A stretch of 64,000 nt of DNA from Octopus vulgaris (lineage: Eukaryota): positions 68,758,001 through 68,822,000 of the forward strand of contig OX597831.1 of assembly GCA_951406725.2 (NCBI GenBank), given 5' to 3'. How positions within the stretch are numbered: the stretch's first letter is position 1; every line of letters begins with the position of its first letter. This document shows, in pieces, positions 31,349 to 41,726 of the stretch. The notes under the pieces are model-generated. The model saw only the letters and a program-made list of their open reading frames with translations, was not told the origin of the DNA and did no database searches. The translations under genes were made by a program, and so were the position numbers.

Positions 31349-32199
<851 letters not shown>

Positions 32200-32684
32200 A
32201 AGAGATTGATTAAATTTCAAAAATTACATAGAAGCAGAAAAAAGGAACAAATGGAATCAAGACAAAAGGAACATGCTCTTTTCTCGTCAGTTATCATCTA
32301 CAAAAATGTAATTGCAATTTCACACTTTTAGCAATATGTGTGTGTGTGCATATGTTTGCATGTGTGTGTGTGTGTGCGTGCATGCCTACTTTTCTACCTG
32401 CTGGCTAGATTAAACTTATGTATTTCTGTATTGGTAAGTTAGAGTTAACATAATTATGATGGATAACATTAATCACTTAACTAAAAATGTTTGATATTCT
32501 AGAGAAAAAAAAAAACACGGTACAAGGTAATGATATGTTACTTTCATTTTTCTAGCTGGTATGACAGCAACCCCAGACATGTTTCAGTCTTACATTGACC
32601 TTATCTGTAAATATAGTCTTCGAAGTACTTGTCCAATTATGTAAATGTACAAGAGTGTATATTATTTAGGGAAATAAAATAGAG

Positions 32685-33102
32685 TTACTCTCTTTACTCT
32701 TTTACTTGTTTCAGTCATTTGACTGCGGCCATGCTGGAGCACCGCCTTTAGTCGAGCAAATCGATCCTGGGACTTATTCTTTGTAAGCCCAGTACTTATT
32801 CTATCGGTCTCTTTTGCCGAACCGCTAAGTGACGGGGACGTAAACACACCAGCATCAGTTATCAAGCAATGCTAGGGAGACAAACACAGACATACAAACA
32901 TACACACACATATATATATATATATATATACATATATACGACGGGCTTCTTTCAATTTCCATCTACCAAATCCACTCACAAGGCTTTGGTCGGGCCGAGG
33001 CTATAGTAGAAGATACTTGCCCAATGTGCCACGCAGTGGGACTGAACCCGGAACCATGTGGTTGGTAAGCAAGCTACTTACCACACAGCCACTCCTGCGC
33101 CT
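32685..33102 (-). mobile_element. SINE family A, full length
   Basis: Complete head to tail. Confidence 0.92.
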
Positions 33103-33934
33103 ATGTTGTTTAGAAATTTTATAATTCAAAGACATCATTAACATAAAAACAAGTTGATTAGTATAAAAATATTTAGTACACAAATCATTAGAAAGTTAAT
33201 TAGAAATATATTAATTGATGAGTAATATAACTTAGTTTTCTCAACAACTACAGGAAACAACTGAAGACATATTTTGGTCTTATTCTGAACTCAGTGTTGA
33301 TAGATAAAATGGATTAAAATGAAGACTTCGTTATTTTCCATTGTGTCACTATTCCACAAATCAAACTTGTGGAATAACAATGCATTTTGAAGAAACTTTG
33401 GTAGAATACTGATGCACGTCATTCAATTGCTCATATTCATTATCATCATCATTTAATGTCTGTTTTCCATGCTGGTATGGGTTGGATAGTTCAGTAGGTG
33501 CCAGCAAGTCAGAAGACTGCACCAATACATGGTTTCTACAGCTGGATGCCCCTCCTAATGCCAACTGCTTTATGGAGTGTACTGGGTGGTTTTTACATGA
33601 CACCAGCAGCAGTGAGTTTACCAAGTAACTTGCAGGACAAGACCCCTGAACTGAGGACAGGTGGTAGTATAGAGGGCTAGAAACACACACACATGACAGG
33701 CTTCTTTCAGTTTCCATCTACCAAATCCACTCACAAGGCTTCGGTTAGTCCAAGACTATAGTAAAAGATACTTGACCCTGAATTATGAAGTTGGGAAGCA
33801 AGTTTCTTACCAACAGCCACGCCCGCACCTATATATATATATATGTAGGTCCCGGGTTGAGTCGGGGTTAACCACAGTAAATAAGGTACTCAATACATAG
33901 CAGAATAAATTAATTTATTTTATTTTATAGAAGG

Positions 33935-33985
33935 AGCTTCTACAGGACTAGTACTGTTTCATTCAAATGAAATCATCAGGAAGCT
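33935..33985 (-). ncRNA. Type-I hammerhead ribozyme motif
   Basis: AGCTTC-CTGATGA-TTTCATTTGAAT-GAAAC-AGTACTAGTCCT-GTA-GAAGCT on the minus strand; identical to 39079-39129. Confidence 0.75.
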
Positions 33986-34401
33986 GGCTGTTAAAATAAA
34001 GTTTGGTATTTATACATTTAGGCAGATTTAATGGGGTGGTGGTGGGGGACGTTTTTTGGGTAAGCAGGGCACAAATTGTCGTTCTTAGGGGTGTGGTCAA
34101 AAGAATCAGTGATAAAGTAAATAAATGAATAAATAGAATAATTGAATAGAGTTTTATGTAAATTAGAAGACTATTGCTTTTAGTCAATTTGTTGTTGTTG
34201 TTATTAAGTTGAGGGAAGAAGTAGATAAATGAAAGAACATATAAAATAAATATACATACAAACCCCCGCATACATACACATGCGAATATCCATATATATA
34301 CATATACATATGCCCATGTATATACATACAGACACACACATACTTACACATAAATACACAAGCACATATATATACATATATGTACACACACACATATGCA
34401 T

Positions 34402-34440
<39 letters not shown>

Positions 34441-34988
34441 CATACAAATACACATACACATACATGCAAACACGCCAACACACGCACATATATATATACA
34501 CATATATATACCCACATATACACACACACATATATATATTTTTTATCTCCTCATCTTCCTCCCTTATTTTATTTTTATTTTTATTTCCTTTTCTCTATTT
34601 GTCTCTCCCCCCTACTCCAAACACATAGACACACACACACACACACAACACACACAAACACACACGTACACACAGAGACGCGCGCGCGCGCGCGCGCGCA
34701 CACACACACCTCCACAGCACATTCATACAAAGTAGACGAAGTTCTTAGCTGACAGTCTTCAAAATCATAAGAGGTATAATTTATGACCTGCCTACACACT
34801 GACACACATTCAGTGACGCTAGATTAGATGAACGCCAAAGTTCCTGGAACTCCCCTTGGGATTCCAGCCTGCCAAAAGGGATACTTCTACTACTCCCCTC
34901 TCCCTTCCTTTCTATCTTGTTACCAAAGGATACAAACACACACACTCACACACACACACACACACACACTCACACGCACACTCACACG

Positions 34989-35019
<31 letters not shown>

Positions 35020-35608
35020 GCACACTCATACACATACACACATATGTTCTCTCACTCATTTCCTCTTCATCCACTTATACATATGCATATATCTCTCTCT
35101 ACATACACATATATATATATATACATACACAAATACACACATGCATACATACATAAATGTACCCACGTTCACATAAACATATACATAACCATGCATATAT
35201 AAACACACATATATAAACGTACTTCTGTACACATAAACACACATAAATATCTGCCCGCTTATATAAACGCATATGCACATATAAAACCATATGTGCATAT
35301 AAATATACATACGCATATATACGCATCCATACACATATAAATACACATAAGCACACATGCATGCATACCCGTATATGTAAATGCATACATGCATATACAT
35401 ACACACACACATATTCATACATGCACATACATACACATATGTACACGTACATACATGTACATATCTACACATATACACATACATATATACCCATACAAAA
35501 ATCTACGAGTCCACATACATATACATATATATATACACACATATATATATATACATATATGCCCATACAAAAATCTACAAGTCCATATATATAAATATAC
35601 ACATATAC

Positions 35609-35638
<30 letters not shown>

Positions 35639-35640
<2 letters not shown>

Positions 35641-36306
35641 CATCATCATCATCATCATCATTTAGCGTCCGTTCTCCATGCTAGCATGGGTTGGACGGTT
35701 CAACTGGGGTCTGTGAAGCTGGAAGGCTTCGTCAGGCCCAGTCAGATCTGGCAGTGTTTCTACGGCTGGATGCCCTTCCTAACGCCAACCACTCCGTGAG
35801 TGTAGTGGGTGCTTTTTACGTGCCACCCGCACAGGTGCCAGACAGAGCTGGCAAACGGCCACGAACGGATGGTGCTTTTACGTGTCACTGGCACAGGGCC
35901 AGGCGAGGCTAGCAACGGACATGAACGGATGGTGCTTTTACGTGTCACCGGCACAGGGCCAGGCGAGGCTAGCAACGGACATGAACGGATGGTGCTTTTA
36001 CGTGCCACAAACACGGGGGCCAGACAGAGCTGGCAAACAGCCACGAAACGGATGGTGCTTTTACGTGTCACCGGCACGGGGGCCAGGCGAGGCTAGCAAC
36101 GGACATGAACGGATGGTGCTTTTATATGCCACTAACACGGGGGCCAGACAAAGCTGGCAAACGGCCACGAAACGGATGGTGCTTTTACGTGTCACCGGCA
36201 CGGGGGCAAGGCGAGGCTGGCAACGGACACGAACGGATGGTGCTTTTATATGCCACCAACACGGGGGCCAGACAGGGCAAACAGCCACGAACAGATGGTG
36301 CTTTTA
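35639..36306 (-). mobile_element. Family D copy with eight ~60-63 bp internal minisatellite units
   Basis: (CAT)7 tail on plus strand; units ending GGATGGTGCTTTTA from 35815 to 36306. Confidence 0.9.
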
Positions 36307-37210
36307 TACATATATATACATATACACATATATACATACACATATGTACTTACACCCATACACAAATATATACACATACACATACATACACACACATATA
36401 TATATATATATATATACATGTACATACATAAGCATATGCATATATAAATACACATACGCATATCTACACACATATGCTCACACACACACTCACACACACA
36501 CACACACACACACCACACACACACACACTCACACGCACATTCGTACCCATACACATACACACATGTTCTCTCACTCATTTCCTCTTCATCCACTTATTCA
36601 TATGCATATATCTCTCTCTACATGCATATATATACATATATACATACATACACAAATACACACATGCATACATACATAAATGTACCCACGTTCACATAAA
36701 CATATACATAATTATGCATATATAAACACACATATATAAACGTACTTCTGTACACATAAACACACATAAATAAATATCTGCCTGCTTATATAAACGCATA
36801 TGCACATATAAAACCATATGTGCATATAAACATACATACGCATATATACACATCCATACGCACATAAATACATATATGCACACATGCATGCAAACCTGTA
36901 TACATAAATGCATAGATGCATATACATACATACATACACATACATACATATACGTACACGTACATACATATACATATCTACACACATACACATACACAAA
37001 CCCATACAAAAATTTACGAGTCCATATATATATATACATATATATACACACACACATATATACACACATACACATATGTACTTACACCCATACACAAATA
37101 TATATATATATACATATATATACTTATATATACATATACATACACATACATAAGCATATGCATATATAAATACACATACACATATCTACACACATACACA
37201 CACACACACT

Positions 37211-37247
<37 letters not shown>

Positions 37248-38007
37248 ACCTCTATATACATATAAAAATCTACAAGTCCGTACATTCACACATATACATA
37301 TATACATATATATATTATGTGAAATAGAAAGATGAATAATCTTGTAGTAGATTAATCAAAAGTTTAACCGATACCTTAGTAGCAAAAATCACAGCAGTAA
37401 AACAGCGGGGAGTTTCCTTGACAAGGCAGGTTTAGATGAGAACACACACACACATAAAACATGATGTATATTTTTTTTCTGCCACCCAACGGTCATCACG
37501 GCAGTAGCCACTGACAGCCGAACGATCAAACGCACACACGTACACAAAAAATGTTTTCTACCCCTACGCCAACACACACGTATATAGAACAGTATACACA
37601 CACACACGTCTCTAAGTAGATTTTTTCTCGCCCCTTATAAAACATCCAATATTCCTTAAATAGTCAGAACTTTATTCTCGGTCACAAAGAACATCTACGC
37701 CCCCTCACCCACATGATTGACCGATGCCTGACCCGTTGAATTCTTCAGCCACCGGTTCTCAACATACACTGATAAACAGTTTCGCCATGGGCTCTTAGGA
37801 GCATAGTTCGATTTGTTTTTGCTCCGCCTCTGTTCTGTTTTTGTTTTTCCAACGGATTTCCTATTTTCTTCCTGAAGAGAAAGACACAATATGGTCCCAT
37901 TATTCCATCGGATTTTGGTAATTTGTGCCTTTCGAAACACGTGTAGAATGAAATAAAACGATTTCTGTTCAATCTGCGTTCATCTCCATTTCTTCAATTC
38001 ACCAATA

Positions 38008-38072
<65 letters not shown>

Positions 38073-38249
38073 CATACATATACATACATACATACATACA
38101 CCCATACACAAGTATACAAGCATATATATATATATATACATAAATACACATACGCATACATATAAATACATACAAGCATACACACACATACACATATACA
38201 TACATACATAAACTTATACATGCATATACTCATACTTACACATACACAT

Positions 38250-38282
<33 letters not shown>

Positions 38283-39078
38283 CATAAATACACGCATGCG
38301 TACATATATGTATACATATACACCTACACATACATACATACACACACATATAGATACACGCACATAAGCACATACATATAAATATTCATATACACATATA
38401 TATACATATACACGTACATAAACATATACATATGCATACACATACATAAATATATACTCGTGTACACACACATATACAAACATATGCACATATACACACA
38501 TACATATACACACATATATACATACACATATATATACACACACATATATATATACATATATATATACATATATATACATACATATATATATACATATATA
38601 CACACACAAACATGCACACATATACACATACACACGTATGCATGCCTACACATACACATGTACATACACAAATGCACACACACACATACAAATACATATA
38701 TGCACTCGTATACATACATGTGCACACATGCACATGCCCACATCCACATATATGTATATAGTCTTAGGAGAGAAGGTAATTGGGGGTGATGAAGGAACGG
38801 TGGGAGTGGGGAGTTGTTGTGGGTGGGGTGTCGCCAATCGGGTTGCCTGGTGGGTCTGTAATGTATGTAGTTGGCATTAATTTTGTGCATACAGTTTGGG
38901 GAGTGTTCTGAGATCTATTCAATTATTCTATTTATTCATTTATTTACTTTATCACTGATTCTTTTGACCACACCCCTAAGAACGACAGTTTGTGCCCTGC
39001 TTACCCAAAAAATGTCCCCCACCACCACCCCATTAAATCTGCCTAAATGTATAAATACCAAACTTTATTTTGGCAGCC

Positions 39079-39129
39079 AGCTTCCTGATGATTTCATTTG
39101 AATGAAACAGTACTAGTCCTGTAGAAGCT
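39079..39129 (+). ncRNA. Type-I hammerhead ribozyme motif
   Basis: 6-bp stem I AGCTTC/GAAGCT, intact CUGAUGA and GAAA, stem III CAG-TACTAGTC-CTG (near-palindrome), GUA triplet with predicted cleavage after 39123. Confidence 0.78.
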
Positions 39130-39139
39130 CCTTCTATAA

Positions 39140-39180
<41 letters not shown>

Positions 39181-39185
<5 letters not shown>

Positions 39186-39414
39186 GGATAAGATCGATTT
39201 TTAATACTGATCTTATCAGGTGGACAGCATGGGAATAAAAACTTTCAAAAGTAATAATTATTTAAAATTATAATTTAGGGTATCTAAGAAATACCACCAC
39301 ACTGGAAATAGCTGTCAAAACTTGACTCTAAAACCACATTAAGTTTAATGTGGTTTTTGAGTCAAATTTTGATTGCTATTTCCAGTGTGGTGGTATCTCT
39401 TAGATACCCTAAAT

Positions 39415-39424
<10 letters not shown>
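39181..39424 (-). mobile_element. Fold-back element: ~80-bp arms, 2-bp centre, ~82-bp extension on the left
   Basis: 39263-39342 pairs with 39345-39424; (TA)n on both flanks. Confidence 0.82.
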
Positions 39425-39468
<44 letters not shown>

Positions 39469-39472
<4 letters not shown>

Positions 39473-39703
39473 AAATAATATGTGACACTTATACAATAGC
39501 CAAGATAAAACTCTGAGTTTCGGATGCCGAGGTGGAAATAACCGAAGAGAAGGTGTTGTGGATTTCCACCTTGGCATCCGAAACTCAGAGTTTTATCTTG
39601 GCTATTGTATAATTGTCACATATTATTTTACAGATAAATTTCCTCTATTTACATAATATTGAGGTCTCTTTCTTTCTTTTGTTATCTTAACGTTTTTACC
39701 AAG
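39469..39703 (+). mobile_element. Fold-back element: ~70-bp arms, ~70-bp extension, hammerhead-like motif at the start of the long arm
   Basis: 39469-39539 pairs with 39562-39632; (TA)n on both flanks. Confidence 0.82.
39538..39596 (+). ncRNA. Hammerhead-like motif with U4C core variant
   Basis: ATAA-CCGAAGA-[stem II GGTGTT/GGCATC plus GTGGA/TCCAC]-GAAAC-TCAGA-GTT-TTAT; stem III AACTC-A-GAGTT is palindromic. Confidence 0.6.
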
Positions 39704-40689: not shown

Positions 40690-40740
<51 letters not shown>

Positions 40741-40965
40741 ATATGTTTGTGTGTCTGTGTTTGTCCCCCTAGCATTACTTGACAACCGATGCTGGCGTGT
40801 TTATGTCCCCGTCACTTAGCGGTTCGGCAAAAGAGGCCGATAGAATAAGTACAGGGCTTACAAAGAATAAGTCCCGGGGTCGATTTGCTCGACTAAAGGC
40901 GGTGCTCCAGCATGGCCACAGTCAAATGACTGAAACAAGTAAAAGAGTAAAAGAGTAAAAGAGAG
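40524..40965 (+). mobile_element. SINE family A, full length
   Basis: Complete head and (AGTAAAAG)3 tail. Confidence 0.93.
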
Positions 40966-41321
40966 TTAGTTGCAGCTGACCATAATTTTTGTCTGTTGTA
41001 GTTTGATTCAGAAAAGAATGCCAGATTTCTGGTTACCTTATATAACTGTCAGACTGACAACTTGTCACAAAAAAAAGAAATGAAAAGTGAACTAAAGCTA
41101 TTCTTATTGCAGGAATACCAAAGAGATTTTTTCTTTACTACAAGTGTCAGAAAAAAAATTTGTTTTTCCAAATTTCAACATTGGTAGAAAGGATCGTTTT
41201 GTAGCAATGTAGTCTCATATTCAATGCCACTACACTACATTTTGGATAAGTGTCTTCTATTACAGCCTTGGATTGACCAATGCCATGTAAGTGGAACAGT
41301 AAAGGAAAACTGTACAGAAGT

Positions 41322-41534
41322 TTTACTCTTTTACTCTTTTACTTGTTTCAGTCATTTGACTGTGGCCATGCTGGAGCACCGCCTTTAGTCGAGCAAATCG
41401 ACCCCAGGACTTATTCTTTGTAAGCCCAGTACTTATTCTATCAGTCTCTTTTGCCGAACTGCTAAGTGACGGGGACGTAAACACACCAGCATCGGTTGTG
41501 AAGCAATGCTAGGGGGACAAACACAGACACACAA

Positions 41535-41567
<33 letters not shown>

Positions 41568-41726
41568 CATATATACGACAGGCTTCTTTCAGTTTCCGTC
41601 TACCAAATCCACTCACAAGGCATTGGTCGGCCCAGGGCTATAGCAGAAGATGCCACGTAGTGGGACTGAACCCGAAACCATGGGGTTGGTTAGCAAGCTA
41701 CTTACCACACAGCCACTCCTGCGCCT
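41322..41726 (-). mobile_element. SINE family A
   Basis: Complete except a short deletion in the CORE-like part; abuts an older family A head at about 41185-41320. Confidence 0.92.

Follow-up and report, generated by a model that had tools for sequence, protein, structure and literature searches.

The window analysed here is a 64,000-nucleotide stretch of the Octopus vulgaris genome (assembly GCA_951406725.2, contig OX597831.1, positions 68,758,001 to 68,822,000; G000:C18:68758001-68822000), and the genome searched with it is TA-rich and 2.8 Gb in size. At positions 33846-39144 the window holds a 5.3-kb feature that is almost certainly a truncated copy of an autonomous Penelope-like element (PLE). 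The feature is bounded by inverted repeats of 231 bp (33920-34150 and 38914-39144) that differ at exactly four positions (33991, 33992, 34051, and 34076), and both arms contain an identical 51-nt type I hammerhead motif in a Hydra-type layout (33985-33935 on the minus strand, predicted cut after 33941; 39079-39129 on the plus strand, predicted cut after 39123). An extension of 74 nt, here called the tail, is confined to the left arm (33846-33919, minus strand), and (TA)n target sequence lies at both ends of the element (33830-33845 and 39145-39184). A first-pass annotation of the locus had described the inverted repeats, with about four differences that spare the hammerhead, the one-sided extension of about 74 bp, and the (TA)n at both ends, and had connected them with the hammerhead-bearing pseudo-long terminal repeats (pLTRs) of PLEs and their inverted 5' pLTR; all of this is borne out.

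Read on the minus strand, the feature runs from the inverted 5' copy of the pLTR end (38914-39144, plus strand), which is the short end without a tail, through the end of an open reading frame (ORF) and a 3' untranslated region (UTR) to the sense copy of the 3' pLTR end (33920-34150, identified by repeat comparison), with its hammerhead and tail. It had been called ORF-less, which does not hold, since the final 26 residues of the family ORF (ISEHSPNCMH..., including a CxH motif) can be read from 38914-38837 on the minus strand, with the stop codon changed to TGG and a 5' truncation point at 38914. The 3' UTR, also on the minus strand, is TG/TA-rich in its proximal (38009-38836) and distal (34151-35639) parts, the latter with conserved blocks near 34540, 34720, 35043, and 35160, and between them lies a further part (36307-37317) that includes a second copy, about 710 bp long, of 34930-35640. 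Two nested insertions interrupt it: a 607-bp short-ended arm (plus strand) with the last 87 nt of a tail (minus strand) from another PLE family (37318-38008), and the 3' end of a common long interspersed nuclear element (LINE), with an (ATG)n end and a 61-bp tandem repeat (35640-36306, minus strand). Both arms have a predicted promoter motif, TATAAAT, 29 nt upstream of their stem I (34008-34014, minus strand; 39050-39056, plus strand).

The family to which the arms belong is large, with 718 candidate places for the arm in the genome and at least 7,648 hammerhead copies, a count of places that match 32 nt of the motif exactly (reversed control, 0). Block 38760-38913 has 478 genome candidates, and at locus L004 the block 38760-38916 runs on into an open frame with reverse transcriptase (RT) and YIG motifs; a protein search gave 106 matches among the 105 scored of 31,684 candidates, several of them with frames open over 680-722 aa. 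An element that joins RT and a GIY-YIG endonuclease to the same pLTR, for which the first-pass annotation had suggested looking, was found by motifs as a whole unit (L091) that runs in direct orientation from pLTR, hammerhead, and tail through a 713-aa ORF and a 2.5-kb 3' UTR to a second pLTR, hammerhead, and tail, and that is 4,782 bp long as measured between its cut sites. Because the tail of this unit (2250-2324) stands directly before the ORF, which starts at 2345, the tail corresponds in whole tandem copies to the 5' leader of the next monomer; after it the element continues with ATAT, resembling the target. DNA was fetched at 14 places that have the arm or the ORF end in common with the window; the order and strand of the window's blocks (ORF end, UTR blocks, and pLTR) recur at nine of them, six of which also carry the 34720 block, and locus L088 has the design of the window copy without the nested inserts.

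The blocks 34720-34930 and 38760-38913, once regarded as unique, are thus the family's 3' UTR and ORF end, and 37320-38008, likewise so regarded, belongs to the other repeat family. The annotation had proposed an undescribed, non-autonomous retrozyme-like family, in which a protein-free unit between two hammerhead repeats is copied whole, and the window copy indeed has no intact ORF, while most family copies carry no ORF at all. We nevertheless consider this very improbable: the cargo belongs, as its 3' UTR, to an autonomous element of RT/GIY-YIG type, the window copy retains an ORF end, junctions and truncation points vary between copies, and the window's junction at 38914 has no second copy among 41 matches of block 38760-38913 (20 loci inspected). 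Non-LTR retrozymes share the type I hammerhead and a PLE origin with the present family but are defined, in the portion of the preprint available (10.64898/2026.07.22.740005), as ORF-free tandem direct repeats, whereas the copy in the window is inverted and truncated and derives from an element with an ORF. A DNA transposon or miniature inverted-repeat transposable element was rejected because the arms have no fixed length and come with an ORF of RT type.

The 713-aa protein is encoded by a single ORF and has YRDD at 347 and a C-terminal endonuclease with YIG at 603. It carries RWR at 38, DKT at 116, and a CxCx5C linker (CNCPDKTTC at 567); it is without CCHH, having one Cys in LVYTCEVRSGPDDKRKSYIG before YIG, and shows CDLC at 667 and CMH at 695. 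These motifs fit the Hydra clade of PLEs, which is defined by DKT, RW[K/R], the CxCx5C linker, and CxxC/CxH around conserved E and N residues (PMC8557442, consulted in part), and an Atlas lead placed the protein with GIY-YIG/RVT_1 clusters at 0.96-0.97. Described members of that clade also have a single ORF, a C-terminal endonuclease, CxxC/CxH as opposed to CCHH, a (TA)n target, an inverted 5' copy, a one-sided tail, a stem II closed by U.U, and an ACAG/CUGU stem III; a hammerhead near the 3' end and insertion into (TA)n, the clade's positional traits, are both present here. The differences lie in length. The 14 complete families described there span 2,084-2,729 bp and their tails 30-40 bp, often at one end only, against units of 4.3-5.9 kb, about twice as large, and tails of about 70-74 nt in the octopus family; the Hydra trait of being shorter than 3 kb, which is typical and not defining, is absent from the 4,782-bp unit. 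The greater size is due to a 3' UTR of 2.1-3.7 kb with alternating purines and pyrimidines. As the hammerhead and the N-terminus differ by eye from those of Hydra-1_Obim, the window's family is distinct from it. The Naiad type of PLE was rejected, its endonuclease being N-terminal and a canonical hammerhead lacking, as opposed to the C-terminal YIG and the hammerhead found here. We take the family to be a new, unusually long Hydra-type PLE family on this sequence evidence; the words Hydra and hammerhead do not occur in the main text, as far as available, of an octopus repeat annotation (PMC13282606), the repeat library of which may already hold the family.

The hammerhead consists of stem I (AGCTTC/GAAGCT, 6 bp), CUGAUGA, GAAA, a 3-bp stem II, a 4-bp stem III with an 8-nt loop, and GUA at 39121-39123, and the first-pass annotation had read stem I, the core, and the cleavage site correctly. 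Owing to the four pairs and eight loop bases of stem III a fold as a monomer is possible. In having a type I motif within the pLTR it resembles the minimal PLE hammerheads described in PMC4209133 (seen in part), from which these stem and loop lengths set it apart. The near-palindrome in stem III that had been noted is present but partly copy-specific: the loop position concerned has A, as in this copy, in 30 of 108 long arms and T in 78. A caveat concerning a weak, U-U-closed stem II and a competing hairpin is mostly answered: stem II is invariant in the 108 arms, a U.U pair lies under stem II in 14 of 25 Hydra hammerheads, four of which have the ACAG/CUGU stem III (PMC8557442 File S2, consulted in part), and the competing hairpin is specific to a subfamily, being the minimum free energy (MFE) fold for AUUU-loop variants only, while other variants have other alternatives. 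The hammerhead appears to be under selection, given that a minor allele of at least 10% occurs in 0 of 38 core and stem columns and in 4 of 13 loop and N7 columns of 108 ungapped long arms. Rfam gave no hammerhead match in the window at gathering score and, at E<=10, no hammerhead among the best 150 of 190 rows, so the Rfam check proposed for the motif came out negative; a relaxed hammerhead scan of the window was non-exhaustive, missing both known 51-nt motifs.

The first-pass annotation had also called the element ribozyme-processed, for which the insertion ends give no evidence: they are placed about 21 nt and 90-95 nt past the predicted cut, and the copied sequence includes the entire hammerhead. 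In the available parts of two earlier studies, metazoan PLE hammerheads on their own are reported to cleave poorly (PMC4209133), and the hammerhead of an Anolis PLE to require its protein and to be dispensable for insertion in vitro (PMC11167929).

The one-sided tail of the window copy recurs in other copies of the family. In a positional sample of the DNA around the first 100 hammerhead matches on C1 (67 loci), exactly one arm carried the tail in 50 of 50 outward-facing inverted pairs (p~1e-15 versus a coin toss), and 39 of these pairs were mini-hairpins of about 200 bp folded at stem I; 19 arms had no partner inside the fetched DNA, three of them being joined to an inverted tail piece. Inverted pairs with an ORF had a single tail in 11 of 12 cases, and on either arm. 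Pairs with the tail on the long ORF-sense arm are L088, L093, and L102, and pairs with the tail on the inverted arm are L090, L094, L095, L096, L101, L108, and L110. One tail was likewise present in 8 of 8 inverted pairs of the nested family seen at 13 loci, which were chosen largely for having a tail. Of 118 arm starts, 71 fall at -3 to +12 of stem I, 27 beyond -45, and 20 elsewhere, and the most frequent fold centre is the palindrome AGCT. Of 93 long arms, 86 have TATAAAT at -29 from stem I and two more have CATAAAT, and the spacing from the TATA box to the stop point is constant across subfamilies, though 14 of the 22 columns of the spacer just upstream of the motif have a minor allele of at least 10% (108 arms). 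Loose ends in public sequencing runs also carry hairpin junction sequence (25 contigs in X15). In the consulted parts of earlier work, opposite-strand hammerhead pairs 100-700 bp apart were ascribed to truncated PLEs (PMC4209133), and palindromes at inverted junctions, with a tail on one inverted pLTR, were described for PLEs of Adineta (PMC3846280); the portions of the PLE literature available held no statement of twin priming, of a one-tail rule, or of a TATA box or start site at the hammerhead.

From the anatomy, the end rule, the fold points, and the TATA spacing, we lean slightly towards a mechanism of twin priming with a transcription start at stem I. The element's protein would nick both strands in the (TA)n target, and two cDNAs would be primed at different distances downstream of an uncut or re-ligated hammerhead, about 90-95 nt for one and about 21 nt for the other, before being joined at an inverted microhomology of short length. 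Run-off of transcripts with their start at stem I, 29-30 nt past the TATA box, would give the mini-hairpins, which form the majority class, and long copies such as that in the window would arise from read-through or from circular templates. Priming on two strands is supported by the Poseidon element PAc of Anolis. According to the part of PMC11167929 available, PAc nicks both strands and extends them from a pair of internal RNA sites, which mark the limits of its tail; its targets are AT-rich and its main substrate is uncut RNA, features that the octopus family would share. PAc belongs to another clade, and no strand difference in start site was seen for it, whereas every pair sampled here has one end of each kind.

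The alternative is fold-back, in which a single primed cDNA self-primes at a palindrome, resolution by the endonuclease leaves the single tail, and the stop at stem I reflects RNA structure and not the beginning of the RNA. Self-priming at palindromic junctions has been proposed for the Adineta PLEs (PMC3846280) and endonuclease resolution for the tail (PMC8557442), both sources being available in part, and the commonest fold centre is indeed a palindrome, AGCT. Against it, the tailed arm differs between pairs, being ORF-sense in some and inverted in others, a variation for which the priming of a single strand does not simply account, and the distance from TATA to the stop point is fixed across subfamilies; we regard fold-back as rather unlikely. 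Twin priming can also be elaborated into a fuller and more tentative scheme that we rate somewhat below an even chance, in which a capped RNA would start at the first hammerhead base, two fixed RNA priming sites would be used, run-off would produce the hairpins, and a circle made by the hammerhead, or read-through, would produce the long copies. One tail per mirror pair would follow in this scheme from the priming of the strands at two fixed, different RNA sites, and the UTR would behave as a microsatellite shuttle as if selected, its 2-3.7 kb of UG/UA-rich RNA keeping length and strand bias while the sequence turns over.

We put at roughly 0.85 the probability that the 5.3-kb feature is one 5'-truncated insertion of an autonomous Hydra-motif PLE that contains two nested elements and was likely made by cDNA priming on both strands. 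The window copy is most likely a single insertion because its arms share two variants, 38972 A and 39064 T, that are absent from 28 other arms, and the arms are each other's closest match, 4 nt apart as against 8-16 to other arms. Origin of the two arms from separate insertions or from a recombined locus is improbable in view of these variants and of the identical layout of L088, although two findings speak for it: window positions 31838-36306, comprising the left arm and 2 kb of flank, match a copy on G000:C15 (L074 3916-8383) at 97.5%, and at 100% in the unique blocks, and that 4.5-kb copy continues into a LINE ORF; and the UTR segment of about 710 bp is present twice (34930-35640 and 36442-37152), flanking the LINE piece, with 85% identity by BLAST, higher in the unique blocks, where the other copies examined match once. 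The C15 copy may stem from recombination in the 61-bp LINE repeat, from transduction, or from assembly duplication.

Several observations weigh against the favoured reading as a whole. The duplication and the C15 copy just described leave some room for a recombined locus; the ORF-bearing locus L092 is tailless at both outer ends, its inverted arm being broken off without (TA)n; and in the nested family the mini-hairpins form no sharp peak, a gap of at most 130 nt being present in 3 of 28 pairs (hand count), so that run-off at stem I is not general. The hammerhead stems are invariant in the 108 arms of the family, which therefore offer no covariation, and the active fold lies 1.2-3.1 kcal/mol above the MFE in all five commonest variants. 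For the 713-aa protein, Pfam gave no RT or GIY-YIG match and a PDB search nothing relevant, and the clade call comes from motifs, likeness by eye to a published alignment, and the Atlas lead.

The microsatellite-rich cargo that drew attention to the locus, CA/TA-rich as read on the plus strand, is the inherited 3' UTR of the family. This UTR is 2,064-3,669 nt long in 23 copies, in which purine-pyrimidine alternation reaches 52-74% versus 13% in the whole window, and on the sense strand T makes up about 42%, G 21%, and C 9%. Copies of one subfamily have hundreds of informative low-complexity 18-mers in common (up to 358), copies of different subfamilies have few, and the reverse-complement controls gave at most 10. 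The microsatellite-like DNA is thus copied with the element, turning over fast while its composition persists. The claim that microsatellite-rich DNA travels with the repeat is accordingly upheld, both by the block order at nine of 14 places and by low complexity inherited within subfamilies. At 4,897 nt the UTR of the window copy is longer than in the family, an excess explained by the 710-bp duplication and the two nested, unrelated insertions, which make up about 1.4 kb of the cargo. The amount of cargo looks modest, at about 30 kb between eight long exact pairs in the 29 Mb sampled, nested inserts included. Microsatellites also move with the simple sequence repeat-bearing Penelope elements of penaeid shrimp (PMC7878876, available in part, with no clade, position in the 3' UTR, or strand bias stated there), and no statement on microsatellite 3' UTRs in PLEs was found in the accessible portions of the literature.

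The nested PLE at 37318-38008 has 1,582 candidates in the genome, with 99-100% identity among the top matches, and 1,408 exact motif matches, and its family appears to be a Hydra-like one younger than its host. It has an ORF 40% identical to that of the first family over 447 residues, a 3' UTR of about 735 nt, a tail of 153 nt, and a hammerhead of its own, the third in the feature and overlooked by the first-pass annotation (37864-37955, plus strand; CUGAAGA at 37872, GAAA at 37934, stem III ACAC/GUGU, predicted cut after 37945), in which stem III pair 4 is C-G as compared with G-C in the window's family. At G000:C1:119514352-119525260 four same-strand hammerheads of this nested family follow one another at intervals of 3,624-3,625 bp, and the unit length can be read from this head-to-tail array. 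A nested-family ORF at L178 4104-6767 has long Asn/Ser-rich inserts, recalling the N-rich inserts described for Adineta PLEs in a source available in part, and a degenerate linker that lacks CxCx5C. The LINE sequence at 35640-36306 continues on C15 into an RVT_1 frame, and we take this LINE to be RTE-like.

Other repeats lie close by. In the (TA)n beside the element, positions 39470-39703 hold a third hairpin insertion, whose inverted arms are about 60 nt long, the right one alone being extended by about 70 nt. It has a hammerhead-like motif with the core CCGAAGA at 39542, ATAA/TTAT as stem I, and ACTC/GAGT as stem III, and it probably represents a further PLE family that follows the one-tail rule. 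A near-perfect palindrome of about 165 bp, by eye without a hammerhead core, lies between two (TA)n runs at 39258-39422, and a common repeat of about 250 bp, presumably of SINE type (short interspersed nuclear element), has three copies (32693-32938, 40706-40960, and 41321-41575), two of them as an inverted pair 360 nt apart.

In the assembly, deletions of 1-3 nt are 25-fold more numerous in the 7 nt around the predicted cut than in an equal window of stem III and loop (505 versus 20). By hand count, the first 100 listed comprise 42 without G+4, 32 without G+1 and G+4, 15 without G+1, and 11 others. An interpretation of these deletions as scars of cleavage in vivo was rejected after an independent check on public runs, as the contigs of four such runs had no deletion listed at those places at a 1% threshold; short-read libraries may under-sample hairpins. 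Most of the deletions belong to hairpin arms, with 11 of 79 as against 0 of 114 (a count biased by the arm-finding method), and mini-hairpins account for 11 of the 13 listed on C1 below 29.2 Mb, a long pair for one. Nanopore sequencing is known to miss base calls in inverted duplicates (PMC7229812, seen in part), and the deletions are probably sequencing errors in hairpins.

The locus itself is a textbook PLE insertion, and the value of the finding is in the family-level end rule and the position of the promoter. The family adds to the Hydra type a PLE of about twice the described size that carries kilobases of inherited microsatellite-like 3' UTR, and the cargo DNA of such UTRs would be annotated as simple repeat. 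The rule of one long and one short end turns what has been loosely described as an optional tail into a testable statement on coordinated two-strand priming, and the conserved TATA box, which puts the predicted RNA start at the hammerhead, offers a handle on what the hammerheads of PLEs do.

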